DNA of 64,000 nucleotides, from contig JACPJU010000001.1 of assembly GCA_016187385.1 (NCBI GenBank), positions 8,348 through 72,347 on the forward strand. Direction: 5' to 3'. Origin of the DNA: Candidatus Aenigmatarchaeota archaeon. GTDB taxonomy: Archaea > Aenigmatarchaeota > Aenigmatarchaeia > CG10238-14 > SCSR01. The position numbers and the translations under genes are program-made. Shown here one piece after another: positions 20,299 through 62,372 of this stretch. The notes below the pieces were generated by a model. That model was not told where the DNA came from. It did not search any database and saw nothing but the letters and a program-made list of their open reading frames with translations. Positions within the stretch are counted from its first letter, which is position 1; each line of letters starts with the position of its first letter.

Positions 20299-20874
20299 AT
20301 GTTGCATATGAGTACTCTGACAATGTTAAAGGAACATCTAGAATCCCTTTCCGGGATCGAAACTGTTAATTTTCGTCAAGAAAACCATTATCCAAAGACT
20401 GATGGTATATGGACAGAATTTGTCAGGATCGATGTTGTTCCGTCTGGGCTTTTTAAAAATGGTGTATACAGGGAAAATGAATTAACAGAACTGGCCAAAA
20501 AATTGGTTCCTCCTAATTTACAACCAAACGATGAGATTGGGTGCAGAGCAGAACTTGGGACACTAATATACCCAAAATTATTTTTCGATGAAGAAATTCC
20601 GGGAGAAGAACTCGATGGAAAATATGACAGTTCAGGACAATATCTTAGAAGAATTGTTGTAACAGGTTATCCACATATGAAAATCGCCGAAGAAGCTTCA
20701 CGAAGTATATGGTATAAATATGCATCTAGGATTCCTGAAGATGTTCTGGCAACTTATGATCATAAACGAAGAATTTACATACCAAGCTTAAACTTGCAAA
20801 CACAACCAGAAACAAAGTATGTTGCACGATTTGAAATTTTAAAGAGGATTAGAGGACTCTTGCCAGCACATTAA
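20299..20874 (+). CDS. Hypothetical protein
   Basis: 191-aa ORF. Confidence 0.4.
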   Translation: MLHMSTLTMLKEHLESLSGIETVNFRQENHYPKTDGIWTEFVRIDVVPSGLFKNGVYRENELTELAKKLVPPNLQPNDEIGCRAELGTLIYPKLFFDEEIPGEELDGKYDSSGQYLRRIVVTGYPHMKIAEEASRSIWYKYASRIPEDVLATYDHKRRIYIPSLNLQTQPETKYVARFEILKRIRGLLPAH

Positions 20875-21177
20875 CCGTATCTCTTGAATCCAAGACTGGA
20901 AGCTATCTCGCGTATGCATCTGCGGCAATAGTACAAATCATACTTCCTGATAACGCCGCGATGAGTTTTACATCTTCGGCATTCACGAGTAGCTTTCCCG
21001 AACTTCTTGGTCGTTTAACCACCTGTATTGCCAAGAACAGTGAGAACTTCCATGTTGCCTGTGAATTCCAATTCCATTATCTTTTCGAAAACACGGGTAT
21101 AAGTTTGCGGGAAATCCTTGTTCCATTCGGCCTGTCTCAAAATAGAGCCGCTGACTTCAATTACCATATCCATCAAT

Positions 21178-21684
21178 TCACTCAACATTAACACCTCTCC
21201 GCTTAAGCCAATTTATCGCGTCTTCTTTATAAATCTTATGCGACTTGCCTATTATACTCTTTTTGATCCTGCGCTTCTTGATGTGGAAGCCGGGTCTTTC
21301 CAAAGTCACTGCAACATCCAGACCAAACATCCCTATCTGCGGAGAATAACGAACATTTGGAAGATCTATGTATTCGCGGACTCCAAGATTGATGTTGCCA
21401 GAGCTGTCGACATTGGAATTCTTAACATTGTTGTCAAAAGCTTTCAATGTTCTTTCGAAAAATTCTTCCGCAGGTTTCTTTCTCAATGTAACCTTGACTC
21501 CGAGAGGCTTCCCCTTGGGGATTCCGAATGTTGATCTCTTTTTTGATTTCGTAATTACAGGTTTCCTGTTTGTAAGCATCTCCAGAAGCTTCTGCGCTTT
21601 CTCTATCTTCTGCTTGTCGTCACCGCATCCTATGTTCAAAGTGATTTTTTCAATTCTGATCTGACGCATTGGATTTTCCTGCAT
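21178..21684 (-). CDS. rpl5: Ribosomal protein uL5
   Basis: Start placed at the internal Met (MQENPMRQIRIEKITLNIG), matching the archaeal L5 N-terminus. The ORF extends upstream in-frame to 21780 and would overlap rps4e. Confidence 0.85.
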   Translation of the reverse strand: MQENPMRQIRIEKITLNIGCGDDKQKIEKAQKLLEMLTNRKPVITKSKKRSTFGIPKGKPLGVKVTLRKKPAEEFFERTLKAFDNNVKNSNVDSSGNINLGVREYIDLPNVRYSPQIGMFGLDVAVTLERPGFHIKKRRIKKSIIGKSHKIYKEDAINWLKRRGVNVE

Positions 21685-21692
21685 ACAATACC

Positions 21693-22388
21693 TCAAGCGA
21701 TTTTCATAACAGGCTTGTCCTTGCCCACAACAATGAAGCTGCCCCTTTCGATTATCTTTTCTTCTTTGCCGATCTCGCACAACACTTTAGGCGTTTGTTT
21801 CATGCCGCCTTTAATCAAGTCTTTCACTTTAGCAAGCTTTCCCACATTCTCGCCCTTGACGACCAATCCCGTATTTCCTTTCGTCAGAGGCAAGTGATCG
21901 ATAATTTTGAGTGACGGTAACTCCAAGAGTAGCGAATCCCCTGTCTTATAATTGCCATCGGCTACTAAAATATTTTTACCGTTGTCGAGATTGAGCTGGA
22001 CTTTGCCTTTTTCCAGGACTGTTTTGTTTTTGATCTTGCAGATTTTCATTGATTCTTTTTCATTTATTTCAATTATTTCCAAACCTTTCGGTGTTGGTAT
22101 GACGCGATAACTTTTTTTCAAGCTCGGGATTGAAACCAAGTCGAACAATCCGACTGGATAACCGTAATCTTTTCTTCTCTTGCCGTCGACAAACAGTTCG
22201 CCTTTTCTTATGATTTTTTTGGCTTCTGATGTCGTGTCAGCTATTTTCAGAATGCTTGTAAGGATTATGGACAAAGGTATTGAAGAGAATTTTGGATGGG
22301 GTCCTGGCCTAGGTGTGACTACCCATTTGCTTTCTTTTCTTTTTACCCCCCAAAATTTGGGCGCTAGCAATCTTTTCAAGTGTGGCAT
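21693..22388 (-). CDS. rps4e: Ribosomal protein eS4
   Basis: MPHLKRLLAPKFWGV...: typical S4e N-terminus with S4 and KOW-like regions. Start trimmed to the conserved Met. Confidence 0.85.
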   Translation of the reverse strand: MPHLKRLLAPKFWGVKRKESKWVVTPRPGPHPKFSSIPLSIILTSILKIADTTSEAKKIIRKGELFVDGKRRKDYGYPVGLFDLVSIPSLKKSYRVIPTPKGLEIIEINEKESMKICKIKNKTVLEKGKVQLNLDNGKNILVADGNYKTGDSLLLELPSLKIIDHLPLTKGNTGLVVKGENVGKLAKVKDLIKGGMKQTPKVLCEIGKEEKIIERGSFIVVGKDKPVMKIA

Positions 22389-22499
22389 GCTTTTCAACAA
22401 TTTATTTCAGATATTTATATTGTTTTTATAACATTGAGTGAAAGGCTAGATTTATAAACATTTAAGGGACCTGGAAAACAATTAATTATTTAGAGACTG

Positions 22500-23435
22500 A
22501 TGGGAATACGGGAGCATTTTCATTTCAAAGACACGGCAAAAATTTATATATTGACATGGCAGTTTATTCTGTTGAGATTCGCCTTGATGCTTGTCTTCAT
22601 TGGCATAGCAGTTTTCTATTTTTCTTCTATCCTAGGCGTGGTCTTGAGCCAGATTGGAGTAGATTCGATATTCAAGGTTATATTGTCAGTAGGCAGCATT
22701 TCCACTGCGACATATCTCTATTATCATATTTACAAGCTGTTTTCAAGATACATATTTTACATTGTTAAAAGTGCTCACATCGCGTTAATAACCGATTATA
22801 TCCAGAATGGCAGAACACCCAAATTAAATCAGCTGTTCCAAGGATTCAGGCTGATGAAGGACAGGTTTTTATCGATATCATTGCTTTTTGTTGTTGACAG
22901 GGTTTTAGAAGCTGTGTTGAAGGAAGTACATCAAAGAATAATGAAATTCGGCGCTGACCTCAAGCTGCCGAAAGCATTGACTTACATCATCAGCGGCACC
23001 ATTCACACTGCAACGAACTATGTCGACGAAGCTATACTTGCATATATGTTCACGCGAAAAAACGAGAGTGCGTGGAAGTCTGCTAAGGATGGTTTGATTC
23101 TTTATGTCAAGAATTGGATGTGGATTTTAGCGACTGCTGCTATACTGTCAGCTATTGTATATGGAACGATGGCATTCTTTGGAGTTTATGTATACTTTGA
23201 AGGCATACCATTCAACTCGGCAGGCGTAATCTTGCAATCCATCTATGGCGTAATGACAGTCGGTATAGTTATTCTTGCATATTCTGGAATAGTCCAGCCT
23301 TTTATGGAAATATCTATCATAGTCACTTATCTGAAAGAAATCAAAGGCCAAACACCAGACAGCAAAACATTCCAATGGGTAAAAAACAATTCAAAGAATT
23401 TCTCACGATTGTTAATGCCAAAATTGCCTGTGTAA
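22500..23435 (+). CDS. Hypothetical polytopic membrane protein
   Basis: 311 aa, at least 6 hydrophobic helices. Opposite strand to the flanking ribosomal genes. Confidence 0.4.
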   Translation: MGIREHFHFKDTAKIYILTWQFILLRFALMLVFIGIAVFYFSSILGVVLSQIGVDSIFKVILSVGSISTATYLYYHIYKLFSRYIFYIVKSAHIALITDYIQNGRTPKLNQLFQGFRLMKDRFLSISLLFVVDRVLEAVLKEVHQRIMKFGADLKLPKALTYIISGTIHTATNYVDEAILAYMFTRKNESAWKSAKDGLILYVKNWMWILATAAILSAIVYGTMAFFGVYVYFEGIPFNSAGVILQSIYGVMTVGIVILAYSGIVQPFMEISIIVTYLKEIKGQTPDSKTFQWVKNNSKNFSRLLMPKLPV

Positions 23436-23461
23436 GAAAACATTAAATTATCAAAGGTTAC

Positions 23462-23800
23462 TCACACAGATATTAATTCGAGTTCTGGATCTTGGGCAAC
23501 ACGACCATATATTTTATATTGCCCGTGTCTTAGTTTTATAAATAAATCAACAAATCCTATTTCCGCATCTTCTCTAGAATTCCAATAAATTTGATTTATG
23601 CCATGAGGGAGGGGTTGCCACAAGTCATGTTCAGGGAGAGTGTAGAATGGTACATATGGTTTTATTGGGTCAGAGCCAGGCGGACTTGGATCCCATTCCC
23701 CTAAATGAAGCAATAAATATGTTATAGCTGTATTACCTTGAAGCGTGCCATAAAACTTAGTTGGATCTAAATCGACTCTTTCTGTTCTCAGCGTTCTCAT
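23462..23800 (-). CDS. Hypothetical protein
   Basis: 112 aa, Pro/Trp-rich. Confidence 0.35.
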   Translation of the reverse strand: MRTLRTERVDLDPTKFYGTLQGNTAITYLLLHLGEWDPSPPGSDPIKPYVPFYTLPEHDLWQPLPHGINQIYWNSREDAEIGFVDLFIKLRHGQYKIYGRVAQDPELELISV

Positions 23801-23854
23801 AGTTTATTATTTGAGTGATAATTTTATAAGCTTTTTTGCATCATTCAAAGTTGT

Positions 23855-26800
23855 TTATCCTGTTAGTGGCTTGAACACTTTAACAAAACCAGCTGTTATT
23901 GGATTAGTTGCATTTGTGGCATTCTGGACTACTTCAGATGGTATCGTTATCGCTTGCTCTTGCTGCAGATACTTGGAAAGTATAGAATTTATGAAATCTA
24001 TTATGAAAAGTAGCATTTGCTTGAGTCCGCCCACTTCTTCTTTTGTTTCCTTCACTTCCTTCTTAAGCTCGTCCAACTTTTGAATCATAAGCTCTAGGGC
24101 AGCGGGCGAAATGCCTGAACCTTGGCACGGAACTTTTGTTGCACACTTGTCGACACACGCCTTCAAATCAATCTCTGTCGCAGTGCCTTTGCTGATAGCT
24201 TCCTCGGCTTTCTCAAGAGTTGATGTACATGTGTTGATGCAATCATCATCTGTTACAAAATTAAAGCATTCCCCGACTGGCGTAGCCGCAACAGGCGTAC
24301 ATACTTTTTGAATGCAGTTCTCGCCGCATGAAACTTCCTTGCACGCTGACTCGAAAGGCGTGGACGGTACATAACCTTGGTATTCATATCCTTCCTTGTA
24401 TTGCAGGACAACACCTTGGACTACTTCGGCCTTTTCATAAGAAGTGCTGCTGGCTTCCAAATGAATTATGTATTTTCCTTCCGTACATTCGTATTTGCTT
24501 ATGAATTGATTGCCTGTGTATCTTTTCAAGCGATAGTCGTAGTATAAGGTGAATTGCTTGACGCACCCTTTGAGTTCTTCTGTCGGGCTTAGGGTGCCGT
24601 CGATTGCAGCGAATTCCACAGATTTACCATTTTCATCCTTCACTTCAGCGTACATAACAAGATTGGCAGCGTCTACTTGGCTGTCCATACGGAATCCTGT
24701 TTCAATAAAGAGCTTGGCCAGTGCTAAATCAAATTCTTTCAATATCTCCGCATCGGCATAACCTGGAGCATTCACTGTCAATTTCAAAGCATACTCGCCT
24801 GTTGAACATTCTGATGGTATGTACGGGCTGTCCAAGAAATATCTTTGAATGAATTCACCTTTGTATAAGACAGGTTTCACCGGCGACAGATAGATTCTGC
24901 ATACAGAAGGCTTGTAGAATCCTTCCTTGGTAGCTGGTTCTGCAAATAACGGAAACACTTCTCCGGAAACCCAGGCGTCTTTCGCAACAGTTCCATTTGG
25001 ATACGTGACTAGAATCTTCATGTACATCCTATCGTTTGGCTTGTAGCTGGTTTTGTCCAGCGAAACTTCGACATTCAGTTTCTGCTTGGTGATTTCTATA
25101 GCTTTTGTAAGCACGATCTCTTCGGGATGTTTAGAGATTTTAATTTCCATGGTGTAATTGCCGACAGCGAACCAATCCTCGACTGTCCAAGATTCTATTT
25201 CATAAAAGCCGTCTTTGAATGTTGTTGACAGGTATCGAGTGGCAAATCCCTGCGGGTCTTTTACTTGTATGCCGACTGAAGCATCTTTAACTGTTTCACC
25301 GTCTTTATCGTAAACTTTTATTCTTCCTTTCAAGACATCCTTCGGGCTTAGGACATTCTTTTCGAGCACAACATCGGCATTCAAACCCCTCTTGCCTACA
25401 GTAATGGTTGTGCTGGCGTTTGCTTTCTGCTCTTTCCATGTCGTGCTGACTGTGAACTGATATTTCTTTCCCACGCTGTCATAGTCGAGATAATATTTGT
25501 AAATGTACACATCACCGAGTATGGAGGGATATATGACCTGTAAAAGCTTGCCGGTGTCTCCGTCGCGAAGCTCGCCTGTAAGATACAAATCTTTGATGGC
25601 ATTTCCCAAGGCATCTTTCGCTGTTACAGTCAATGCTACAGAATCTCCCGAGAAGTAATCTTTTTTATCTGCAGTTATCGTGAAGGTTTGTATCGTCGGT
25701 TTGATTACTTTCAATGAAGCGTCTGCGCTTGTGGTTTTGAAATCAGAGTGAGAAACTTCTATGGATAAAGTATAATCGCCTGTTGAGATGCTCTCGCTGA
25801 GATAGTATGAAGCCTTGTAGCAATCGCATAGGGAAGAATAGAAGAAATAGAGATTGTATGTTTTTGGTCCAGTAAGGTTGCCTTTTATGTAAGCGTCTGT
25901 GACAAGCTTGCCTGAAGCGTCTGTTACAGTAATTTTAGGATCTAGGAATTCGTTAGGATAATATGTCGTCTTTGGTAAGTTGATTTTTATTTGTATAGAT
26001 TGCTTGCCGCTTGTGACAGCTACGCTCGTGCCTTTACCGACATTGCCAGCGTCGTCCTTGCATTCAAAATAAATATTGTGAGTGCCTTCCGGCAAGCCAC
26101 TAGCAAATGTGTAAGACGCTGCTCCGCTAGAAACTGTTGCTGTGTAGTTGGCGTCATTCTTTACAAGCTTGCATTCTTTGACGCCTATGTTGTCCGAGAC
26201 TGTTGCTGAAAAGGTTGATTGTTTGTTTGGTGTTACTGAAGTTGGGCTGGCGCTTCCGACAGCAGGAGATGTTGTGTCTGATGGTTGCGTTATTTGCGTT
26301 GCCAAAGTTGTAAAAGTGTTATCACCTGACACGCCTTGATTGTTTGAAACGTCCTTCGACTTTACTCGATAATGGTAAGTTGTTGATGAGGATAAGCCGG
26401 TCAAAGTAAATTTATGCGATGTCTTCAGGGTAGAATTGCTACCAACACTTCCGTAGTTCGTGTCTTTTCCATATTCCAATTCTGACGTAGCGCTTTCGTC
26501 TGTTGTCCACGATATGGCTGCAGATTCGTTTGTTATGCTTGATGCGGAGATGGATGAAATAGATGGTGCTGTCGTGTCTGATGACGGCGATGCTGTAGTT
26601 GCGAATGACGAACTTGCTGTTGCTTGAACACCGGAAGCGTCTCTTGACTTGGCCCGGTAATAATATGTTGTCGATGAAGATAAGCCGGTCAAAGTAACTG
26701 TATGGGATGTTGTCATGCTTTCGTTAGTGACATTGGTGCCGTATGTTGTGTCTTTGCCGTATTCGATTTCTGTAGTCGAACTGTTATCGGTTGTCCAAGT

Positions 26801-26914
26801 TATAGTCACTAATTCGTGTGTTGCAGTTACAGAAGACGGTGGTATGATGCTTAAAGCCAAGACCGTGGGGATAACTGAAAGAAATAGGAATATAAATACC
26901 AGTATCTTTTTCAC
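23855..26914 (-). CDS. Large secreted or surface multi-domain protein (signal peptide, 2x FN3-like repeats, multiple Ig-like beta domains, C-terminal Cys-rich module and coiled coil)
   Basis: 1019 aa. N-terminus MKKILVFIFLFLSVIPTVLALS is signal-peptide-like. Two about 95-aa repeats with TITWTTD...EIEYGKDTTYG...TTYYYRAKSRD (FN3 / purple-acid-phosphatase-N-like). A long Thr/Ser/Val-rich beta region. C-terminus has more than 15 Cys in about 90 aa, followed by a heptad-like KLDELKKEVKETKEEV and a hydrophobic stretch MLLFIIDFINSIL. Confidence 0.7.
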   Translation of the reverse strand: MKKILVFIFLFLSVIPTVLALSIIPPSSVTATHELVTITWTTDNSSTTEIEYGKDTTYGTNVTNESMTTSHTVTLTGLSSSTTYYYRAKSRDASGVQATASSSFATTASPSSDTTAPSISSISASSITNESAAISWTTDESATSELEYGKDTNYGSVGSNSTLKTSHKFTLTGLSSSTTYHYRVKSKDVSNNQGVSGDNTFTTLATQITQPSDTTSPAVGSASPTSVTPNKQSTFSATVSDNIGVKECKLVKNDANYTATVSSGAASYTFASGLPEGTHNIYFECKDDAGNVGKGTSVAVTSGKQSIQIKINLPKTTYYPNEFLDPKITVTDASGKLVTDAYIKGNLTGPKTYNLYFFYSSLCDCYKASYYLSESISTGDYTLSIEVSHSDFKTTSADASLKVIKPTIQTFTITADKKDYFSGDSVALTVTAKDALGNAIKDLYLTGELRDGDTGKLLQVIYPSILGDVYIYKYYLDYDSVGKKYQFTVSTTWKEQKANASTTITVGKRGLNADVVLEKNVLSPKDVLKGRIKVYDKDGETVKDASVGIQVKDPQGFATRYLSTTFKDGFYEIESWTVEDWFAVGNYTMEIKISKHPEEIVLTKAIEITKQKLNVEVSLDKTSYKPNDRMYMKILVTYPNGTVAKDAWVSGEVFPLFAEPATKEGFYKPSVCRIYLSPVKPVLYKGEFIQRYFLDSPYIPSECSTGEYALKLTVNAPGYADAEILKEFDLALAKLFIETGFRMDSQVDAANLVMYAEVKDENGKSVEFAAIDGTLSPTEELKGCVKQFTLYYDYRLKRYTGNQFISKYECTEGKYIIHLEASSTSYEKAEVVQGVVLQYKEGYEYQGYVPSTPFESACKEVSCGENCIQKVCTPVAATPVGECFNFVTDDDCINTCTSTLEKAEEAISKGTATEIDLKACVDKCATKVPCQGSGISPAALELMIQKLDELKKEVKETKEEVGGLKQMLLFIIDFINSILSKYLQQEQAITIPSEVVQNATNATNPITAGFVKVFKPLTG

Positions 26915-26964
26915 TATCCCACTAGAAACTAATTTGGATTTTCTTATAAATAAGGTTAGAAAGA

Positions 26965-27372
26965 TTATTTGGACTGAACTGTGGATGGTTGCTCTGTGAC
27001 TATTTTGACTCCTTTCCTTTCTATTATCTTTTGTCTTTTCTTGTCATCAAGATTCAAGCTTATTATCTTGAGCTTGCTCGGACTCAACGAAATCTGGGCT
27101 TCAGTACCAACGGTTCTCTTTCTTGTCACGCCTTCGAGATAAACGCGATATTTCTTGAAATTGACTCGTGCTATCTTTCCTGTCTTACCTTTCAGTTTTC
27201 CGCTCATCACCTGGACCTCATCGCCTTTCCTTACTGGCATTGCCCTTCGCTTGTATTTTTCGCGCAATTCTTTTGACAAATGGGATGATAATATCTTTCT
27301 TTTGAGATGCAACGGTGCTGTGTGCAAGAACTTTCTCTGCTTCCCTGGTTTTTTTGATTTTGGTCGTTTCAT
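26965..27372 (-). CDS. rpl24: Ribosomal protein uL24
   Basis: KOW motif region PVRKGDEVQVMSGKLKGKTGKI. Position is downstream of rpl14, as expected. Confidence 0.85.
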   Translation of the reverse strand: MKRPKSKKPGKQRKFLHTAPLHLKRKILSSHLSKELREKYKRRAMPVRKGDEVQVMSGKLKGKTGKIARVNFKKYRVYLEGVTRKRTVGTEAQISLSPSKLKIISLNLDDKKRQKIIERKGVKIVTEQPSTVQSK

Positions 27373-27771
27373 TTACACCACTATAGTCGCAATTTTTCCG
27401 ATGGTAGAAAATCTCTCCACGACTTCCTTTGCTATAGGACCCTTGACTTCGGTTCCTTTAGGAGCTCCTTTTTCGTCTGTCAGCACGGCTGCATTGTCCT
27501 CGAAGCTGATTCTCATGCCGTCTGGTCGCCTGAATTCCTGTCTCTGCCTTACGATGACACCATTGAACATTTGCTTCCTGACTTTGGGGTCGCCTTCCTT
27601 CACAGAGACTTTTATCAAGCTGCCAATGCCTGCTTTGGGCATTCTCTTTCTCCTGCCTTTGTAACCTGAAACAGAAATTATCTGCAAGAGCTTGGCGCCG
27701 CTGTTGTCAGCACATGTTAGGTAACTACCAACATTCAGTCCTTTTGTGACAGAAGCCTTGATGCCTTTCAT
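27373..27771 (-). CDS. rpl14: Ribosomal protein uL14
   Basis: 132 aa. CADNSGAK and the remaining pattern match the uL14 consensus. Confidence 0.9.
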   Translation of the reverse strand: MKGIKASVTKGLNVGSYLTCADNSGAKLLQIISVSGYKGRRKRMPKAGIGSLIKVSVKEGDPKVRKQMFNGVIVRQRQEFRRPDGMRISFEDNAAVLTDEKGAPKGTEVKGPIAKEVVERFSTIGKIATIVV

Positions 27772-28121
27772 CCGCCCACCTTTTCAATGACAATGAAGTG
27801 CTTTGTTTTGCTTATCGGGCGGCATTCAGCCAGTGTCACGATATCTCCTTCTTTTGCGTCGATGCAAGTTGGATTATATGCTGTGATTTTCGAATGTCGC
27901 CTCTCGTATCTTTCGTATTTCGGCACAAAATTAAGATACGATCGTGAGATAATGGCTGTTTTCGTGGCTTTGGCGGAAACCACCTTGCCTTTGATGATGT
28001 TGCCTCTGACAGGAAGTATTCCGTGCCAGCAACATTTTGGATCTGAACATTCTTTTGATGGCGGTTTTGCGTCCACGCCAATGTTTCTCGCTTTCATTCT
28101 ATCAGCTTTATTAATTAACAC
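27768..28121 (-). CDS. rps17: Ribosomal protein uS17
   Basis: GKVVSAKATKTAIISRSYLNFVPKYERYERRHSKITAYNP...GDIVTLAECRPISKTKHF is S17-like. Confidence 0.85.
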   Translation of the reverse strand: MLINKADRMKARNIGVDAKPPSKECSDPKCCWHGILPVRGNIIKGKVVSAKATKTAIISRSYLNFVPKYERYERRHSKITAYNPTCIDAKEGDIVTLAECRPISKTKHFIVIEKVGG

Positions 28122-28147
28122 AAGATATGTTTTTATTCTTTTTTAAA

Positions 28148-28432
28148 CTACCATTTCGGGAGTTTTTTCTTTATCCTGTCTTCCGGCCTGGAGACGAGCA
28201 GTTTGCCGTCGATCTGTATCTTGGTTTTGTTGGGCAAGATGAACAGAAATACAGAGTTTTCTTTTATCGCAGTTCTTTCTTTTCCGTCTTTTGTTTCTAT
28301 TTTCAGGGTGTTGTAGGTTTCGTCTATGACAGTTCCCACTAATCCCTTTTGCGTGGAATCTGTGGATTTGTTTATTTTCACCTTCAATCCAATCAGTTCA
28401 TGCCTTACGAGATTGTGTGGTGTTATTGGCAT
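28148..28432 (-). CDS. rnp1: RNase P protein component 1 (Rpp29/Pop4)
   Basis: HELIGLKVKI...GLVGTVIDETYNTLKIETKDGKERTAIKENSVFLFILPNKTKIQIDG...RPEDR fits the Rpp29 Sm-like fold consensus. Canonical position upstream of rps17. Confidence 0.75.
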   Translation of the reverse strand: MPITPHNLVRHELIGLKVKINKSTDSTQKGLVGTVIDETYNTLKIETKDGKERTAIKENSVFLFILPNKTKIQIDGKLLVSRPEDRIKKKLPKW

Positions 28433-28476
28433 ATTGTTATTATCGAGAAAGTAGGATAAAAATGATAACGTAAAGT

Positions 28477-29022
28477 TTATTTGAGAGAGTTTGGGGCTTT
28501 TGTTTGATTTTGTATTGATTCAAGATCTAATAAATCAGGGAGTTTGCTATTAATCCTGCATCTGATTACTCCATCTTCTGTGGGGATTAGAATCCCGCTA
28601 TCTATTGCTTTTTTCCAGGTCTTTTCGCTGACTTTGCTCATAAACATGGATTGGAAAGCCTCTTCATACCCATTATTCAATCCCCAGTATAAAGTTCTTA
28701 GACACAATTCATATCCAGGCGTTCTTGGTTGACCTGATTGGCTGGTTAATCTGTAAAATCTTAAATTCGCAGAAAGGTTATTTGCCCAAAAATCTTGAAA
28801 TGTCATTATGTTGCCATCAAACTTTTGAGCCTCGATTTGTGCAATAAGCGAATTATCCTCAAAAATAAAATATCTAGGCGCGTCTAAAGCATGTTCTCTA
28901 AATGTCGCTAAGACGTCATATGGGGATATCTTTCCCTTATGTTCATATCTAGGCTGATCCAAGACGCTTTGACATTGTCTAATTGTTAATTCTGCTCCTT
29001 CATATATCCGAAAATGTCCCAT
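28477..29022 (-). CDS. Hypothetical protein
   Basis: 181-aa ORF between rnp1 and the divergently transcribed rpl30 block. Confidence 0.4.
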   Translation of the reverse strand: MGHFRIYEGAELTIRQCQSVLDQPRYEHKGKISPYDVLATFREHALDAPRYFIFEDNSLIAQIEAQKFDGNIMTFQDFWANNLSANLRFYRLTSQSGQPRTPGYELCLRTLYWGLNNGYEEAFQSMFMSKVSEKTWKKAIDSGILIPTEDGVIRCRINSKLPDLLDLESIQNQTKAPNSLK

Positions 29023-29184
29023 TTTACCACTAAATTTTTATTTTATAATTTCCGTTTTCGCGCCACTCTTGCTCGAACTCCGAAACGATTTCGCCAGTTC
29101 GATATCTCAATGTCACCGGCATATCATTTACTTAAATCAAAAACTTTAAAAAAGATTAATTAACATAATCCTACAAGTGAAACT

Positions 29185-29643
29185 ATGCTAAGTGTGGTAA
29201 GAATCAGGGGAACGGCCGATTTGTCTAATGAAGTCCGCGATACGCTGAAATCACTTGGATTGAACGCCCCCAACCACTGTGCTCTAGTCCCGGAAATGCC
29301 CGCATACAAAGGAATGCTCGATAAGGTGAAGGATGTTGTCACTTATGGCGAAATTGAAAAGAAGATGCTGGTGGAAATGCTGAAGAAAAGATTGAGGATG
29401 ACTGACGACAAAAAAGTGAATGAGAGCACGCTGAAAACAGTTACAAAGTTCAATTCTTATGACGAGTTTGCGGACATGTTGATTCAAGGGAAAGCGATGC
29501 TGAGCGACTTTAAGAAACTGCAGCCGATATTCAGACTAACGCCTCCATCAAAAGGCTTCAGGTCTATAAGAGAACATTATCCTAAAGGGGACTTGGGCTA
29601 CAGGGGAACCGCAATCAACAGCTTACTGAAAAGGATGATTTGA
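29185..29643 (+). CDS. rpl30: Ribosomal protein uL30
   Basis: MLSVVRIRGTADLSNEVRDTLKSLGLNAPNHCALV is the uL30 N-terminal signature. Confidence 0.85.
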   Translation: MLSVVRIRGTADLSNEVRDTLKSLGLNAPNHCALVPEMPAYKGMLDKVKDVVTYGEIEKKMLVEMLKKRLRMTDDKKVNESTLKTVTKFNSYDEFADMLIQGKAMLSDFKKLQPIFRLTPPSKGFRSIREHYPKGDLGYRGTAINSLLKRMI

Positions 29644-30081
29644 ATGGTTGTGAATAAAAGAAAGAAGCACACAAGATTCAGAGGGAACAGGCATTACCAC
29701 GGCTCCCACAAGAAGCACAAGGGTGCTGGAGGAAGAGGAGGCAGGGGAGATGCTGGCCTGCACAAGCACAACTGGACATGGACAGTGAAATACGACCCTC
29801 ATCATTATGGAAAAAGGGGATTCAAGCGCCACCCCTCTGTTGTCAGACATTTGAAAACCATAAACTTAAAAGACATCGACTCGATGGTGGACAAGCTGGT
29901 GGAGAAGAAACTTGCGGGAGAGGAAAACGGAAAAATAAAAATCAATCTCGAAAAGATAGGATACGACAAGCTTCTGGGCGCTGGAAGAATAACAAAGCCT
30001 ATTATTGTCGAATGCAAATATTTCTCTAAGAATGTCGAAAAGAAATTGGAACAAGCCGGCGGTAAGCTGGTCAAATTGTAG
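29644..30081 (+). CDS. rpl15: Ribosomal protein uL15
   Basis: RKKHTRFRGNRHYHGSHKKHKGAGGRGGRGDAG is the Gly/Arg-rich uL15 N-terminus. Confidence 0.85.
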   Translation: MVVNKRKKHTRFRGNRHYHGSHKKHKGAGGRGGRGDAGLHKHNWTWTVKYDPHHYGKRGFKRHPSVVRHLKTINLKDIDSMVDKLVEKKLAGEENGKIKINLEKIGYDKLLGAGRITKPIIVECKYFSKNVEKKLEQAGGKLVKL

Positions 30082-30091
30082 GTTTTGAATC

Positions 30092-31516
30092 ATGGATGAA
30101 GAACAACCAGAAAAGAAAGATTTGGCGACAAGGCTTGTAAGATTCTTCCCTGCTATCGCCAAGCCTGAATACAAGCAGGACCTGAACGCCAGGCTCAAAT
30201 GGACCGGAATAGCCCTATTATTGTTTTTGCTGCTTTCTCACATCATCATGTACGGCATAGACAGGTCGGCTTCTTTCGAGCAGTTCAAGTTCTTTGAAAT
30301 CGTGCTCGGCTCGAAGTTCGGAAGCTTGATGACGCTTGGCATAGGTCCAATAGTCACGGCAGGTATCATCATGCAGTTGTTGACAGGATCGAAAATTATT
30401 AATTGGGACACGACAAAGCCAGAAGGCAGGAAAAAGTTTCAGACATGGAACAAGCTTCTTGCGGTCATACTCGCATTCGCAGAAGCGGCGGCATTCGCAA
30501 TGTCTGGTGCACTGCCTATCACTGGTGGGCTACCGATAATGCTATTCGTGATTGTCCAGTTGGCAGCAGGCGGTATAATTGTGATACTTCTTGACGAACT
30601 GGTGAGCAAGTGGGGATTCGGTTCCGGTATAAGCCTTTTCATAGCAGCGGGTGTTGCAACGCAGGTCGTGATAGGATTGATAAGTCCCCTTTCAATTGGA
30701 GGTGTGACAGCTGGCGCTATACCAGGGTTCATATTGAGCTTGATAGGAGGTGATATTGAATTGGCAGCAAGATACATGCTTCCTGTTCTGACCACTACCG
30801 CGATATTTTTGATTGTGGTTTATGCCCAGCACATAAAAATCCAGATACCACTGACATTCTCAACGATGAGGGGATTCGGAAGGACATGGGACCTTAAACT
30901 GCTTTACACGAGCAATATTCCAGTCATCCTGACAGCAGCTTTGATAGCGAACATACAACTGCTTGCAAGATTCGGCACGGCTCCGACGCCAGACGGACTT
31001 ATTTGCGGACCGCTTGCATGCTTCGACCAAGCGGGGAATGTGGTGAGTGGTATTGTATATTTCTTATCGGTGCCAGGCGGCGGCATCTTCAACAACAGCC
31101 TTTTGTTCCAGATAGTTTCCGGCACTGTGATTCCGGGTGAAATCCTGCGGGCGTTGACGTACACGCTATTCCTTGCGATAGGGTCTATGACATTTTCCAT
31201 TTTCTGGGTCAATACTGCTGGAATGAATGCGGAAAGCGTTTCAAGGCAACTGGACAGCGCAGGCATGCAGATTCCCGGCTACAGAAAGGACACAAGAGTC
31301 ATGCAGGCTGTTCTGAACAGGTATATACCCCAGCTGGCTGTTCTCGGCGGTTTAGCCATAGGCTTGCTGGCTGCAGTGGCAGACCTGACAGGTGCGATAG
31401 GAACAGGAACCGGAATACTTTTAACTGTTATGATCGTTTATAATTATTACGAACAACTTCAGCGCGAGAAGCTTGACGAAGCACATCCGTTGATAAGGAA
31501 GATTGTAGGCGAGTGA
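30092..31516 (+). CDS. secY: Preprotein translocase subunit SecY
   Basis: 474 aa, 10 TM helices. Canonical position after rpl15. Confidence 0.9.
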   Translation: MDEEQPEKKDLATRLVRFFPAIAKPEYKQDLNARLKWTGIALLLFLLLSHIIMYGIDRSASFEQFKFFEIVLGSKFGSLMTLGIGPIVTAGIIMQLLTGSKIINWDTTKPEGRKKFQTWNKLLAVILAFAEAAAFAMSGALPITGGLPIMLFVIVQLAAGGIIVILLDELVSKWGFGSGISLFIAAGVATQVVIGLISPLSIGGVTAGAIPGFILSLIGGDIELAARYMLPVLTTTAIFLIVVYAQHIKIQIPLTFSTMRGFGRTWDLKLLYTSNIPVILTAALIANIQLLARFGTAPTPDGLICGPLACFDQAGNVVSGIVYFLSVPGGGIFNNSLLFQIVSGTVIPGEILRALTYTLFLAIGSMTFSIFWVNTAGMNAESVSRQLDSAGMQIPGYRKDTRVMQAVLNRYIPQLAVLGGLAIGLLAAVADLTGAIGTGTGILLTVMIVYNYYEQLQREKLDEAHPLIRKIVGE

Positions 31517-31517
31517 A

Positions 31518-32009
31518 ATGGTATTTGAATTCACGGGCAAACTTATAGACCCCATATTTGCACCTTTGCTAGTTTTCGATCCTTATCTATCCATATTCCT
31601 CTTTTCGGTCTTTATTTCGGCAGTCATTTTCGGAATAAACAAGCTGATGATAAACAAAAAGGTTGCGAAAGAGATAAAGGAGAAGCTTACGAACATACGC
31701 GAGAATCTGACCAAGGCACAGAAGGAGGGGAAGAAGGACGAGATAAACAAATTCCTGAACGAGTACATGAAGACCAACAACGAGTACATGCAGCAGATGT
31801 TCAAGGTAATGATAGTGTCCTTAGTTGTTGTTATTGTTTTCTTTCCGTGGGGTTCATACAGGTTTGGTGATGCTGTTGTGGTGACGCATCCTGTTGTGCA
31901 AGCTTTGAACTCGTTGCCTCTGATCAGCCTTCTGCCGAACTGGGTTGTGTGGTATGCGCTTGTTTCGGTTGCAGTAAGCTGGACATTGAGGAAATTCTTG
32001 GGTGAGTGA
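31518..32009 (+). CDS. DUF106 / archaeal YidC-Oxa1-like (EMC3/Get1-type) membrane protein
   Basis: 163 aa. TM1, then a charged coiled coil (KKVAKEIKEKLTNIRENLTKAQKEGKKDEINKF), then two more TM segments. Sits in the conserved secY-(adk)-DUF106-rpl34e neighbourhood. Confidence 0.55.
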   Translation: MVFEFTGKLIDPIFAPLLVFDPYLSIFLFSVFISAVIFGINKLMINKKVAKEIKEKLTNIRENLTKAQKEGKKDEINKFLNEYMKTNNEYMQQMFKVMIVSLVVVIVFFPWGSYRFGDAVVVTHPVVQALNSLPLISLLPNWVVWYALVSVAVSWTLRKFLGE

Positions 32010-32258
32010 ATGAAAAAAGTCAAGAGAAGGGTTACTTCAGGAAAAGTCAGGATTCATGTAAAGCGCGAGAAGACTGCTTTGCACAGATGCGCGAATTGCA
32101 AAGGCATTCTCCATGGCATGAAAAGATTGATGCAGAGCCGTGTGAGAAAGCTGGCTAAAAGTGACAGGAGACCTGACAGGCCATATGGCGGTTATCTCTG
32201 TTCCAACTGCACAAGGGAATTATTCAGGGAAAGGGCTAGAGTTTCAAATGATATTTAA
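32010..32258 (+). CDS. rpl34e: Ribosomal protein eL34
   Basis: RCANCKGILHGM...YGGYLCSNC is the eL34 zinc-binding pattern. Confidence 0.85.
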   Translation: MKKVKRRVTSGKVRIHVKREKTALHRCANCKGILHGMKRLMQSRVRKLAKSDRRPDRPYGGYLCSNCTRELFRERARVSNDI

Positions 32259-32284: not shown

Positions 32285-33559
32285 TTATTCTCTAATAACT
32301 ACTGCTTCTTTACCGTTACTGATTATTCGCACTCTATCTCTTACAGATTCGGTCGTTTGATACATTTTTTGATACCATAAGTTACTTTTTAATATTGACA
32401 CATCCGCTTTCTTTATTAATCTCATTAAACCGTGTACTAGGAAATTGTCGGCTCGCCCAATAACCAATGCTCTCATATTCGGAACGCTTAAATCTACGTC
32501 GTACTCCTCTTGGTGTGCGGAAGATGTCATGAAACAATATCTTTCTCTACCCAGCATTTCAGATGAGGATGAGTAATGAATTTTCATTACATTAGCTGAA
32601 CCATATAATATAATATCTGCATTCCCGCCGAGAATTGAAGACATTCCTAAATTAGTCAGGTTCATTTTTAAATCATCATCAACTCCTTCAAAAGTTATTT
32701 CAGGTTCTTCGAACCCTCCTAATTTCGATGCAACCTGTAACACCTCCCATTTGCCCAGTCCTCTTATCACCGGTAGCACAATTCCTTGGGGAGGAGTTAT
32801 ACCAAAAACTATGTCAGCATGTAAAACATTTGCACCAACCGATGGCAATTGAAAATCTGCCGTTTCAATTCTTTTGAATGGCCTGACTTGGTATAATTCA
32901 AACGGGTCATAACCAAATTCGACAAATAGACTTTGTCCGTCTGCAATTTCTTTTAAACTTTCTAATTGTCTATATCTATCTACTAAAAACTTCGCATCTT
33001 CATCTGAGATTCCACGGCTAATTATTTCGTGGTTTTCACTTTCGCCTTGGACTTTTTCATCAAATAAATATCTTTTATGTTGACGGGAATATTCACCCCT
33101 GCCTTCGAAATAAGATATGAAAATCAAATCAGGATTATTGGGATGCCTCATCATAGCCCCGCAATAACCTGAAGGCGACTGTTCTTGTATAACAACATTA
33201 ATTTGTTCATCGATATGGAACCCGTTCTGTCTGGCGTATTCAACTGCTCTTTCACTAGTTGCACTTTTTTCAACTTGCCTAATTGCATCCTCTAAAGAAC
33301 ATTTATCATAAACATCAGGAACGGAATCGAAAATACCCTCGAAATCACTGTATTCATATGGTGAAGAGGAACGAACAATAACAGGCTTTTTCATGCGATG
33401 AAAACGGTGTAAAACACCGCTCAAGCCAGCTCCATATTCTTTTATCACATAATTTGGGATAGGGATGTCTGGAAGTTTATCTCTCACATAATTAAGTATT
33501 GCACCCTTTCCTCCGTATTGGGTTATTTCAGATGCAGTCAACATAGAAAAACCTATCAA
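32285..33559 (-). CDS. PEP-utilising-enzyme-like (PPDK_N-type ATP-grasp) domain protein
   Basis: 424 aa. N-terminal YGGKGAILNYV resembles the GGK(G/S)ANLxEM nucleotide-binding motif of PEP synthase / pyruvate phosphate dikinase N-terminal domains. The rest is not recognised. Confidence 0.35.
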   Translation of the reverse strand: MIGFSMLTASEITQYGGKGAILNYVRDKLPDIPIPNYVIKEYGAGLSGVLHRFHRMKKPVIVRSSSPYEYSDFEGIFDSVPDVYDKCSLEDAIRQVEKSATSERAVEYARQNGFHIDEQINVVIQEQSPSGYCGAMMRHPNNPDLIFISYFEGRGEYSRQHKRYLFDEKVQGESENHEIISRGISDEDAKFLVDRYRQLESLKEIADGQSLFVEFGYDPFELYQVRPFKRIETADFQLPSVGANVLHADIVFGITPPQGIVLPVIRGLGKWEVLQVASKLGGFEEPEITFEGVDDDLKMNLTNLGMSSILGGNADIILYGSANVMKIHYSSSSEMLGRERYCFMTSSAHQEEYDVDLSVPNMRALVIGRADNFLVHGLMRLIKKADVSILKSNLWYQKMYQTTESVRDRVRIISNGKEAVVIRE

Positions 33560-33578
33560 ATATTACAAATTTAAGCAT

Positions 33579-33917
33579 TCAAAAACTCTTAAAATCGTCT
33601 AAAAATTCACTCCTATTATAATATTCTTCTCTTGCGTGCGCAAGCTCCAGTTCTGCGTATCCATCTCGAATAGCCAGCCAAGCGGAATAGAATCGTTCAA
33701 CCGCAATTCCTGCTAAACACGCTGTAAAGATCATCTTAGGATTGTCACTAAATGGTGTTAATATAGCAGATACTGCAGTTATGCCGCCTATCCTGTATAA
33801 ACTTCCCATCACGATATCATAAGGCGAACGAACTCTTCCTCGAATCTCAGTTATGTGATTTTTCAATTCATTTATGGATAACTCTGAGAAATCATATCCT
33901 TTTCTATAAAACATCAA
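33579..33917 (-). CDS. Hypothetical protein
   Basis: 112-aa ORF with one hydrophobic segment. Confidence 0.3.
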   Translation of the reverse strand: MMFYRKGYDFSELSINELKNHITEIRGRVRSPYDIVMGSLYRIGGITAVSAILTPFSDNPKMIFTACLAGIAVERFYSAWLAIRDGYAELELAHAREEYYNRSEFLDDFKSF

Positions 33918-33983
33918 TGAGACACCAGGATTCTTTATGATTTATAAATCTAATAAAGATATAAAATATTGAATATTATGGCA

Positions 33984-34325
33984 ATGGAAGTAGGAATGGT
34001 GTGCATGAAGGTTTCCGGCAGGGAAGGCGGAAATATTTGCACGATTGTAAAGAAAGTTGATAAGAGTTTTGTCGAGATTACTGGTCCTAGGCTAGTTACT
34101 GGTGTGAAGCGCAGGAGATGCAATATAGCACATTTGGAGCCTGTCGGTATGTTCATGGAGATTGGTGAAGGTGCCAATGATGAGGATATAATAGAGGCTT
34201 ATAAGAAGGCTGGTGTGATTACAAAGTTCAACTTGAAACTACCTTCCGCTGCCGAATTAAAATCTGTTAAAGAGAAGGTTGAAATCAAGAAGGAAAAGAC
34301 TGAAGCTAAAACCAAAGAGAAGTAA
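33984..34325 (+). CDS. rpl14e: Ribosomal protein eL14
   Basis: MEVGMVCMKVSGREGGNICTIVKKVDKSFVEITGP...GVKRRRCNIAHLEP matches the eL14 consensus (GrVC.k.aGreaGk.c.IV...d..fvlvtGp...gVkRRr.N..HLE). Start chosen at an internal Met of ORF 33969. Confidence 0.8.
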   Translation: MEVGMVCMKVSGREGGNICTIVKKVDKSFVEITGPRLVTGVKRRRCNIAHLEPVGMFMEIGEGANDEDIIEAYKKAGVITKFNLKLPSAAELKSVKEKVEIKKEKTEAKTKEK

Positions 34326-34352
34326 TATAAACTCTCAAACAATTTAAATTTC

Positions 34353-35309
34353 ATGTGGTTGACCAAATCAGACGAAGAGACAAATCCTGAATACGGAAAA
34401 TATCCTAAAGACAGGAATATAAACGAACTGATAGATTCTTCTGTACTAATTGTTGACAAGCATGCAGGTCCCACATCGCATCAAGTGACTGCATGGATAA
34501 GAGACATTTTTAATGCCAAGAATTGCGGGCATTCTGGAACTTTAGATCCTGGTGTGACAGGTGTTCTTCCCGTAGCTTTGGGAAATGCAACAAAGGTCAT
34601 GCCTGTATTGACGGGATTAGATAAAGAATACGTTGGGACAATGCATCTGCACAAGGAAGTTCCTGAAGACATGCTGAGAAATGTGATAGTTGAGAGATTC
34701 ATAGGGAAAATAAGGCAGCGTCCGCCAGTGAAATCTGCTGTAGCCAGAATTGAAAGGGAGCGCGAGATTCATTTTTTCGATATATTAGAAATTGACGGAA
34801 AGGACGTTTTGTTCAAAGTCGGCTGCGAAGCAGGGACATACATAAGAAAACTGTGCCATGACATCGGCAGGGCATTGAATGTTGGCGCGCATATGTCAGA
34901 ATTGAGAAGAACTAAAGTCGGGAATTTTACGGAAAATGATGCTCATTCGTTGGTTGAAGTTAGAGATGCGTATGAAATCTGGAAAGAGAATAATGATGAG
35001 GCTAATCTAAGAAATATATTGATCCCTGTGGAATATGCTACACTGCATACGAAGAGAATTTTTGTGAAAGACTCTGCCGTAGCTTCGCTTTGCAACGGAT
35101 CTCCGCTATATCCGAGGGGGATAACTAGAATACAGGAAGGTATTATAAGGGGTGAGACAATCGCTGTCATGACATTGAAAGAAGAATTGATTGCATTGGG
35201 TATAGCTAAGATGACGAGCGACGAAATGTTCAAGAGAAAGACTGGAGTTGCGTGCAGGATTGACAGGGTGCTAATGCCAATGGAATTATATCCGAAGTGG
35301 GATAGATAA
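34353..35309 (+). CDS. cbf5: tRNA/rRNA pseudouridine synthase Cbf5 (TruB family, with PUA domain)
   Basis: HSGTLDPGVTGVLPVALGNATK contains the TruB catalytic Asp motif (GTLDP). C-terminal PUA-like region. Adjacent to rpl14e, as in most archaea. Confidence 0.85.
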   Translation: MWLTKSDEETNPEYGKYPKDRNINELIDSSVLIVDKHAGPTSHQVTAWIRDIFNAKNCGHSGTLDPGVTGVLPVALGNATKVMPVLTGLDKEYVGTMHLHKEVPEDMLRNVIVERFIGKIRQRPPVKSAVARIEREREIHFFDILEIDGKDVLFKVGCEAGTYIRKLCHDIGRALNVGAHMSELRRTKVGNFTENDAHSLVEVRDAYEIWKENNDEANLRNILIPVEYATLHTKRIFVKDSAVASLCNGSPLYPRGITRIQEGIIRGETIAVMTLKEELIALGIAKMTSDEMFKRKTGVACRIDRVLMPMELYPKWDR

Positions 35310-36595: not shown

Positions 36596-36717
36596 GCTGG
36601 AGTTGGACAACCTGGTCGTCCACTGGTCTTGAGTCTGACAGCTGGTTATTGTGACAAGTTATCAGAATGATAACCAGCACCCGCAAGGGTATGTGGGTTC
36701 AAATCCCACCTCCAGCG
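36596..36717 (+). tRNA. tRNA-Ser (anticodon UGA) with a 38-nt intron at the canonical 37/38 position
   Basis: Folded by hand. Acceptor GCTGGAG/CTCCAGC (7 bp). U8. D-stem GGAC/GTCC with GG in the loop. Anticodon stem CTGGT/ACCAG. Loop CU-UGA-G. Intron about 36634-36671 carries GCTGGTT, complementary to the 3' anticodon-stem/exon, which fits a bulge-helix-bulge splice structure. Long variable arm CACCCGCAAGGGTAT (type II). T-arm GTGGG-TTCAAAT-CCCAC. Discriminator G. CCA not encoded. Confidence 0.7.
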
Positions 36718-41889: not shown

Positions 41890-41970
41890 AAAGCCGATCT
41901 TAAATGTAAATGAGCTTCTCAGATATGGATGAGATTATATCCCCTTATAATTCAATTAATGACAAATCAT

Positions 41971-57273: not shown

Positions 57274-57274
57274 C

Positions 57275-59098: not shown

Positions 59099-59136
59099 GG
59101 CTTGCTTTAAAGAGTTTTCTTCCTTATTTTTAACTT

Positions 59137-59736: not shown

Positions 59737-59793
59737 ATTTCATCACTTCTAAGTAACAGTAACCTTTATATATAATCAAATCAAGAGATATTT

Positions 59794-60645: not shown

Positions 60646-60649
60646 TAAT

Positions 60650-61108: not shown

Positions 61109-61116
61109 GTGATTAA

Positions 61117-62361: not shown

Positions 62362-62372
62362 AGTCATAAAGT

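Follow-up and report, generated by a model that had tools for sequence, protein, structure and literature searches.

The window considered here is a stretch of 64,000 nucleotides (nt) from Candidatus Aenigmatarchaeota archaeon (GenBank assembly GCA_016187385.1, contig JACPJU010000001.1, positions 8,348 to 72,347 of the forward strand). It carries parts of the archaeal ribosomal-protein superoperon, in which the genes for L24 and S4e are parted by a 4.6-kb insert of three genes. These encode a 1019-amino-acid (aa) secreted protein (BIG), a small orphan open reading frame (ORF), orf112, and a polytopic membrane protein (TM311). BIG and TM311 are apparently a relocated native two-gene envelope module, to which orf112 has been added as a strain-specific orphan. 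The features of the locus, in window coordinates, are as follows.

28148-28432, minus strand: RNase P p29 (rnp1; Pfam PF01868, E = 4.6e-26), 75-80% identical in relatives; first recognisable gene of the p29-S17-L14-L24 block.
27768-28121, minus strand: rps17 (uS17; Pfam PF00366, E = 2e-25); likely start at the ATG at 28097; called as 109 aa in Logan contigs.
27373-27771, minus strand: rpl14 (uL14; Pfam PF00238, E = 4.9e-37).
26965-27372, minus strand: rpl24 (uL24; Pfam PF16906, E = 4.5e-28), the last ribosomal gene ahead of the insert.
26915-26964, minus strand: rpl24-BIG spacer of 50 nt, holding the promoter-like block that accompanies BIG.
23855-26914, minus strand: BIG, 1019-aa secreted protein with a signal peptide and Pfam matches to FN3/Pur_ac_phosph_N, Big_13 and MG2.
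23462-23800, minus strand: orf112, a 112-aa orphan that separates the 3' ends of BIG and TM311.
22500-23435, plus strand: TM311, a 311-aa polytopic membrane protein.
22389-22499: divergent intergenic region between TM311 and S4e, with TATA-like elements for TM311 (plus strand) and S4e (minus strand).
21693-22388, minus strand: rps4e (eS4; Pfam PF00900, PF08071 and PF01479), called as 231 aa in Logan contigs; head of an S4e-L5-miniORF-S14 unit.
21178-21690 (ORF to 21780), minus strand: rpl5 (uL5; Pfam PF00281 and PF00673), called as 168 aa.
21015-21194, minus strand: mini-ORF of 52-59 aa between rpl5 and rps14.
20871-21014, minus strand: rps14 (uS14 type Z), 47 aa, recognized with phmmer.

The order from p29 to L24, then BIG, the 112-aa ORF and the opposite-strand TM311, then S4e and L5, had been put forward in the original prediction and was confirmed by the ORF list and Pfam. 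Within each ribosomal sub-block the genes are tightly packed or overlapping.

This arrangement is not an artefact of assembly. Identity with the window is 100% in six Logan contigs, which come from five other SRA runs. One of them (L001) spans 21929-31441 and crosses both junctions of the insert; the L24/BIG junction is also crossed by L002 and L003, and the TM311/S4e junction by L100 and L101. In addition, BIG and HYW24_00255, encoded on a 786-kb contig of a Candidatus Aenigmarchaeota archaeon metagenome-assembled genome, are identical. A chimera in which a surface-protein contig was joined to ribosomal contigs, the error that had been named as able to undo the observation, is effectively refuted by these independently assembled contigs, three across each junction, and its probability is negligible. 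No support for it was found, since the stop of contig L004 at 26923 is the end of that contig and not a conflicting join.

The junction between L24 and S4e was compared in relatives. A scan with S4e over one genome per GTDB species gave four Aenigmatarchaeota loci (L010-L013; S4e 60-67% identical), and a fifth (L016; S4e 57% identical) was reached via its BIG orthologue. In each of the five the order is p29-S17-L14-L24-S4e-L5-miniORF-S14 and then an A24 peptidase, and L24 and S4e have no large gene between them. The spacing of L24 and S4e ranges from an overlap in L016 through 90 nt in L012 and 300 nt in L010 to approximately 600 nt in L011 and L013; it is 9-63 nt in ten distant archaeal loci. 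The synteny comparison thus bore out the claim that a large surface-protein gene was inserted here, and did so as a lineage-specific event, absent from all five relatives and from the ten distant archaea. The insertion of BIG is judged to be specific to the lineage of the window, as are a break between SUI1 and p29, where a 181-aa ORF (orf181) lies, and the insertion of a PPDK_N-like gene further along.

In L011 (9398-9955, minus strand) and L013 (9396-9956, minus strand), an opposite-strand ORF of about 185 aa occupies the wider gap. These two ORFs are fast-evolving and share 25% identity, and the L011 copy gave no Pfam match. They are unrelated to BIG, TM311 and orf112. Neither orf112 nor orf181 showed significant homology to the gap ORFs of relatives (the ~185-aa ORFs of L011 and L013, those of 127 and 156 aa in L016, and one of 119 aa in L017). 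The presence of a gap ORF in both L011 and L013 indicates that the L24/S4e junction has been occupied more than once.

An open junction in L011 and L013 is also what would be expected had the gap been open early, and BIG and TM311 could have stood between rpl24 and rps4e first and moved out in all other lineages. The genes found in the gaps of L011 and L013 are, however, not those of the module; L24 and S4e lie 90 nt apart or overlap in L012 and L016, and they are adjacent in 10 of 10 distant archaeal loci. Many independent excisions would be needed in place of one insertion, and such an ancestral placement is considered extremely unlikely. The direction of the event, insertion and not excision, is thus inferred by parsimony.

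Other insertions are seen in the first 9200 nt of L016. A Ser_hydrolase gene and a short adh_short fragment lie between S3 and L29, a 156-aa ORF lies between SUI1 and p29, and a 127-aa ORF lies between p29 and S17. In the same locus Sec61beta adjoins L23, and the BIG/TM311 pair is found about 1 kb beyond.

Only Aenigmarchaeota-type contigs gave full-length orthologues of BIG (P0002-P0011), with 44-68% identity; other matches are confined to the N-terminal FN3 domains. Seven other contexts of BIG were examined, and the neighbourhood differs in all of them.

L005: BIG neighbours thioredoxin/ArsP.
L006: BIG neighbours eIF5A and histone.
L008: BIG neighbours HhH-GPD/DUF3592, with glycolysis genes nearby.
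L014: BIG neighbours unannotated genes, with a glycosyltransferase nearby.
L015: BIG neighbours Sec61beta and homoserine dehydrogenase.
L016: BIG neighbours Sec61beta and cupredoxin, next to L23.
L018: BIG neighbours SMC/ScpA.

In six of these seven contexts the 3' end of BIG meets that of a convergent TM311 orthologue, either overlapping or abutting it, and the TM311 orthologues that adjoin BIG orthologues are 66-73% identical to that of the window. The closest TM311 relative with any context (L017, 74% identical) has an M10 peptidase and Cas1 as neighbours on a contig of 7.3 kb, where BIG is not visible. In the window, BIG and TM311 are separated by a 419-nt spacer that carries orf112. This ORF is absent from the BIG/TM311 pairs of L005, L008, L014, L015, L016 and L018. 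It matched only itself among 5.8 billion proteins and had no Pfam, NCBIfam, PHROG or PADLOC match. The two further genes that had been noted beside BIG are thus of different kinds. The 311-aa protein is not an unrelated passenger, being the conserved convergent partner of BIG in six other genomes, and the 112-aa ORF is a strain-specific orphan.

Between L016 and the window, the BIG core is 65% and TM311 72% identical, and the ribosomal and RNase P proteins of the same genome are 57-77% identical. Since these values are alike, the pair is under a constraint comparable to that on ribosomal proteins. The GC content at third codon positions (GC3) is 0.43 for BIG and 0.44 for TM311, which matches the core genes. 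That the three genes form a mobile element or an island acquired horizontally is very unlikely in the face of this native composition and of orthologues, with identity on par with ribosomal proteins, in at least seven other Aenigmarchaeota-type contigs. The orphan orf112, with a low GC3 of 0.25, would fit a foreign origin, as would the sharp boundaries of the insert between flanking ribosomal genes that keep their orientation. Of the marks of an integrated mobile element, only a deviant composition is seen, and this in orf112 alone, which is AT-rich. Pfam scans of the window ORFs gave no integrase or transposase domain, the flanks of the insert contain no direct or inverted repeats beyond short ones at chance level, no tRNA is adjacent to the insert, and the genes of the module have no PHROG or PADLOC match.

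The upstream regions of the module genes have been kept in unrelated surroundings. The block in the spacer ahead of BIG, about 50 nt, consists of CTTATTTATAAG...AAATTAGTTTCTAGTGGGATA followed by a GTG start. It reads CTTATTTATWAGRA...AAATTA.TTTAGTGGGATAGTG and has its TATA-like element near -36; homologous blocks precede BIG in four of six other contexts (L015, L016, L014 and L005). Similarly, a block AAAACAAATAATTAT.TAGAGA is kept upstream of TM311 orthologues. BIG and TM311 would each appear to carry a promoter of their own. S4e is preceded, some 30 nt ahead of its ATG, by an element of the AATATAAAT type. The window and L010-L013 all have it, including the locus whose gap measures only 90 nt. 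In the window the TATA-like elements of BIG and S4e are placed at about 26950 and about 22430. A scan of the region from 21 to 36 kb gave TATA-like motifs 25-50 nt upstream of S4e, TM311, orf112, BIG, orf181, L30, L14e and cbf5, and none before L5, L24, L14, L15, SecY, DUF106 or L34e. This pattern suggests that the L24/S4e junction was already a boundary between units and that the module brought control regions of its own. A scan for sigma-70 promoters and intrinsic terminators was set aside as not meaningful for an archaeon.

The original prediction had also proposed that the placement may give BIG high constitutive expression. Read-through from a strong ribosomal promoter past rpl24 would then provide high, growth-coupled expression of the surface protein, and the position would have been selected. 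BIG does lie on the same strand as rpl24, 50 nt downstream, across a spacer with T-runs of no more than three. Elsewhere the module is also found beside housekeeping genes, namely Sec61beta (L015 and L016), the ribosomal L23 end (L016) and eIF5A with histone (L006). However, most genes in these genomes of about 0.8 Mb have housekeeping functions, and chance alone would be expected to produce such neighbours. The block upstream of BIG is conserved in four of six other contexts, including non-translational ones (thioredoxin/ArsP in L005 and the unannotated genes near a glycosyltransferase in L014), and five relatives do without the placement. Codon usage compared with the ribosomal genes of the window gives no sign of high expression of BIG, but the ribosomal genes themselves do not stand out in this test, which thus has no discriminating power. 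Selected placement is not required by the evidence and is regarded as unlikely.

The relocation of a native envelope pair into a pre-existing L24/S4e unit boundary of a fragmented superoperon is the probable explanation of the locus. The superoperon would first have been cut into separately promoted units: p29-S17-L14-L24 (perhaps headed by orf181), S4e-L5-miniORF-S14, L30-L15-SecY-DUF106-L34e, L14e and cbf5. The clade-conserved BIG/TM311 module would then have moved into the boundary between the first two of these, each gene bringing along its own promoter-like region. The strain-specific orf112 would have arisen or landed later between the 3' ends of BIG and TM311. The TATA-like element of S4e across the clade, together with the opposite-strand gene in two relatives, argues that the boundary existed beforehand and that the insertion came without polar cost.

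Several points weigh against this explanation. The promoters and the boundaries of transcription units are predicted from sequence only. The rpl24-BIG spacer, 50 nt between genes on the same strand, has no T-run longer than three and no clear oligo-T terminator, and rpl24 and BIG may be co-transcribed by read-through. The nearest relatives that have the region show only 57-67% S4e identity, so the timing is coarse and the direction is parsimony-based. No repeats or recombinase were found that would account for the relocation. Also, the functions proposed for BIG and TM311 are drawn from architecture and conserved pairing; BIG has no C-terminal transmembrane anchor by hydropathy, and TM311 gave no significant fold match in the PDB with Foldseek.

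The N-terminal signal peptide (hydrophobic over residues 1-29) is the sole hydrophobic segment in the hydropathy profile of BIG. It is followed by an FN3/Ig part (26-312), an MG-like core (313-850), a module with 10 cysteines (858-930) and C-terminal helices. The FN3/Ig part consists of two FN3/Pur_ac_phosph_N domains and one Big_13 domain and is variable or absent among orthologues. Residues 313-1019 are 42-75% identical among orthologues, except for the C-terminal ~85 residues in the two most distant, and the 10-cysteine module is invariant. The AlphaFold2 model (mean predicted local distance difference test score, pLDDT, of 69) is a string of about nine beta-sandwich domains, with the C-terminus modelled at low confidence as amphipathic helices. 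BIG has 12 N-X-S/T sequons, or 1.18 per 100 aa, compared with 0.50 in 24 other gene products of the region at ~17-36 kb, and is likely to be glycosylated.

BIG shares tandem MG domains with the alpha-2-macroglobulin/TEP/CD109 family, as seen from the Pfam MG2 match (E = 4.1e-10) and from Foldseek, in which CD109, bacterial alpha-2-macroglobulins, C5 and TEP1 are the top matches (E ~1e-17 to 1e-20) with TM-scores of 0.1-0.2. Titin and mastigoneme score equally well against the model. In contrast to that family, the sequence of BIG has no CxEQ thioester motif and no Pfam match to a thioester domain, and its model has no large helical thioester domain. The likeness is one of generic tandem beta-sandwich repeats and not of family membership. 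The signal peptide, beta-sandwich domains and N-glycosylation sequons agree with an archaeal S-layer or surface glycoprotein; hydropathy calls no C-terminal transmembrane helix, and no PGF motif, the mark of a PGF-CTERM anchor, was found in the sequence.

TM311 is all-helical and polytopic in its AlphaFold2 model (pLDDT 77), and no Pfam or NCBIfam model matches it. Comparison with the PDB by sequence gave no match for TM311 or for BIG. Foldseek likenesses of TM311 to choline-transporter-like proteins and CysZ are weak (E >= 0.07, TM-score <= 0.47) and were not used. A word-indexed search returned 18 proteins, the named ones all from Aenigmarchaeota, and a profile search (matches P0140-P0287) returned 550 clusters at 50% identity, 79 of them with E <= 1e-30. 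The clusters include Woesearchaeota and haloarchaeal 'hypothetical proteins', and TM311 is one of a sizeable family of uncharacterised membrane proteins in archaea.

The architecture and conserved pairing of the two proteins lead us to infer a surface or envelope role for BIG, with TM311 as its membrane partner. The SlaA/SlaB surface layer is made of two components, of which the anchor is a single-pass coiled-coil protein encoded in the same operon. BIG is likewise a large secreted beta-sandwich protein, likely glycosylated and genetically paired with a membrane protein, with a variable outer N-terminal part and a conserved inner part. In contrast, TM311 is polytopic, all-helical and encoded convergently, and there is no similarity of sequence or fold to SlaA or SlaB. 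SlaA/SlaB of the Sulfolobales are mentioned by Podar and colleagues (2013; PMC3655853). The pair is uncharacterised, conserved like ribosomal proteins and placed in a different neighbourhood in every genome. In these uncultured symbiont-type archaea it is a candidate for the principal structure of the surface or of host contact.

The ribosomal block on the far side of the insert is longer than it first appeared. The claim that no S14 follows rpl5 proved wrong: a uS14 gene at 20871-21014 on the minus strand matches the uS14 chains of solved ribosomes in the PDB (phmmer, E = 3.9e-16). It is intact, 74-82% identical to relatives, and both CxxC pairs are kept. Since S14 is present behind the mini-ORF, the block on the L5 side ends after S14 and not after L5. 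The part of the claim that stood is that S8, L6, L32e, L19e, L18 and S5 were not found by Pfam among the ~70 larger ORFs of the window, a scan that small genes would escape. With the same limit, under which rps14 itself was missed, adk and cmk were not found, nor was any further ribosomal-protein gene. The genes L3-L4-L23-L2-S19-L22-S3-SUI1, which L011 retains upstream of p29, have no counterpart in the window.

The position of the rps14 start codon is ACG in the window, directly after the TAA of the mini-ORF, and the same ACG is seen in two independent assemblies. In relatives the S14 start codon is TTG, GTG or ATG, and it abuts the stop of the mini-ORF, is within one codon of it or overlaps it. 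Gene callers skipped rps14 because of the ACG, and the first reading missed it because the gene is shorter than 60 aa and has ACG at its start position. An essential ribosomal gene has thus been overlooked for want of a canonical start codon. The ACG-start gene may be translated by reinitiation or by read-through, or there may be a second copy of rps14 elsewhere in the genome.

The mini-ORF is a conserved feature of the clade. It is roughly 52 aa long, the ORF of the window reading as 57-59 aa. Its identity to the window is 64-77% in L010-L013 and 51% in L016, with the following coordinates in these relatives.

L010: 11253-11414.
L011: 11228-11398.
L012: 6530-6691.
L013: 11251-11421.
L016: 976-1155, minus strand.

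Canonical archaeal clusters do not have the mini-ORF; their gap between L5 and S14 is 25-70 nt. Its product ends in ...LGNTGG in the window (...LGNxGG in the clade), with Gly-Gly in five of six genomes and Gly-Ala in L016, and a single in-frame TAA parts it from S14. At 52-59 aa the mini-ORF is short for the beta-grasp fold of ubiquitin-like and ThiS-MoaD modifiers. It has no sequence match in the PDB, and hhalign comparison with ubiquitin or ThiS gave no similarity (probability <1%). Were the ribosome to read through the TAA, uS14 would be made as a miniORF-S14 fusion and released by a cut behind Gly-Gly; this would, if true, be an archaeal parallel to the eukaryotic ubiquitin-ribosomal-protein fusions, yet it is very improbable. 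Reinitiation at the non-canonical ACG right after the stop would be much likelier than the fusion, at about an even chance, if there is no second rps14. A plus-strand ORF of 76 aa (20961-21191) was rejected as a conserved gene, being the antisense shadow of the mini-ORF and rps14.

On the other side of p29, the remaining pieces of the superoperon are arranged as follows.

28477-29022, minus strand: orf181, a 181-aa orphan between p29 and the divergent L30 block.
29185-32258, plus strand: L30-L15-SecY-DUF106/EMC3-L34e block (Pfam), in which DUF106 begins 1 nt after SecY.
32285-33917, minus strand: PPDK_N-like gene (424 aa; Pfam PF01326, E = 1.6e-10) and a 112-aa ORF (orf112b), between L34e and L14e.
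33969-35309, plus strand: rpl14e (NCBIfam PRK04333, 87.3 bits against a cut-off of 87) and cbf5 (Pfam TruB_N, PUA and DKCLD).

These findings agree with the earlier description of this side, in which L30-L15-SecY lie divergently on the plus strand beyond an unknown 181-aa ORF, adk and cmk are absent near secY, secY-DUF106-rpl34e are contiguous and rpl14e-cbf5 stand behind the PPDK_N-like gene. Like orf112, orf181 has no Pfam, NCBIfam, PHROG or PADLOC match, and it has no homologue in the fetched loci except in the same strain. No homologues of orf191 (20299-20874), orf112, orf181, the PPDK_N-like gene or orf112b were found in the fetched relatives. These lineage-specific ORFs stand at the breaks of synteny with GC3 values of 0.25-0.31 (0.25 for orf191, 0.31 for orf181, 0.28 for the PPDK_N-like gene and 0.30 for orf112b), compared with 0.43-0.54 in the surrounding conserved genes.

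A metagenome scan for the SecY side returned 80 loci. Ten distant archaea (SecY 41-45% identical) have the textbook order of p29...L5, approximately 3.5 kb, L30-L15-SecY, approximately 0.7 kb and DUF106...L14e-cbf5. Among about 35 closer relatives (SecY 51-79% identical), p29...L5 was never found within 9-10 kb upstream of L30, and SecY is followed directly by DUF106, without adk, in nearly all where this is readable. L025 and L029 keep S8-L6-L32e-L19e-L18-S5-L30. The two closest relatives by SecY (77-79% identical) have no S5 upstream of L30; ahead of L30 they carry Ni-SOD with its peptidase (L020, 79%) and a bestrophin-like gene (L066, 77%). L34e adjoins L14e in L021, L022, L024, L026, L027, L029 and L030. 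Of the breaks that had been listed as strong evidence of rearrangement, the insertion of BIG is local to the window, whereas relatives share three others: a block that ends after L5/S14, the missing adk and the break between S5 and L30. An exceptional rearrangement is not required by the evidence; ordinary scrambling of gene order is known in reduced genomes.

The canonical superoperon reads p29-S17-L14-L24-S4e-L5-S14-S8-L6-L32e-L19e-L18-S5-L30-L15-SecY-adk and is collinear in the ten distant archaeal loci. The window keeps p29-S17-L14-L24, S4e-L5-S14 and L30-L15-SecY with their internal order intact. However, it is broken at SUI1/p29, L24/S4e, S14/S8 and S5/L30, one block is inverted, and non-ribosomal genes stand at every break. 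L24 is not adjacent to S4e, L5 to SecY are not contiguous on one strand, adk does not follow SecY and cmk is not found between L34e and L14e. The superoperon has been described as occurring 'in different combinations and arrangements' (Koonin and Wolf, 2008; PMC2588523), and disintegration of ribosomal operons has been described in the Nanoarchaeota, in Nanoarchaeum equitans and Nst1 (Podar et al., 2013; PMC3655853). The lineage of the window likewise belongs to the small-genome DPANN archaea, with broken ribosomal operons and neighbourhoods shuffled between relatives. In contrast to N. equitans and Nst1, fragmentation in the clade of the window is partial and stepwise, with surviving blocks of three to five genes and several breaks shared clade-wide, and relatives still keep the L3...L24-S4e-L5-S14 and S8...SecY blocks.

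The locus thus offers a stepwise picture of the most conserved prokaryotic gene cluster coming apart in a reduced DPANN lineage. Breaks would accumulate where genes acquire promoters of their own, and native genes and AT-rich orphan ORFs would then settle in the gaps. It is a further instance of known genome fluidity in another DPANN phylum and does not overturn current understanding.

Other features were observed in the window. A single 430-aa ORF at 101-1393 (plus strand) matches both the PriS and PriL primase families and looks like a fused primase, as is typical of DPANN archaea. At 4662-5896 (minus strand), two adjacent overlapping genes (231 and 180 aa) each contain an MgtE domain and perhaps represent an MgtE that was split or duplicated. 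At 36596-36717 (plus strand) Rfam finds a tRNA gene (38.8 bits) that ARAGORN missed; its length of 122 nt implies an intron of about 50 nt. An Orn/Arg decarboxylase-like gene, a deoxyhypusine synthase and an arginase-family gene at 39897-42798 (minus strand) probably form a polyamine and hypusine unit. Finally, 55504-63164 (plus strand) is syntenic with positions 1-7186 of L006, a distant Aenigmarchaeota genome; this block contains two large proteins (589 and 607 aa) without Pfam match, two NTP_transf_2 genes and an AP endonuclease, and some 3 kb past it, on the downstream side, L006 has its BIG orthologue.

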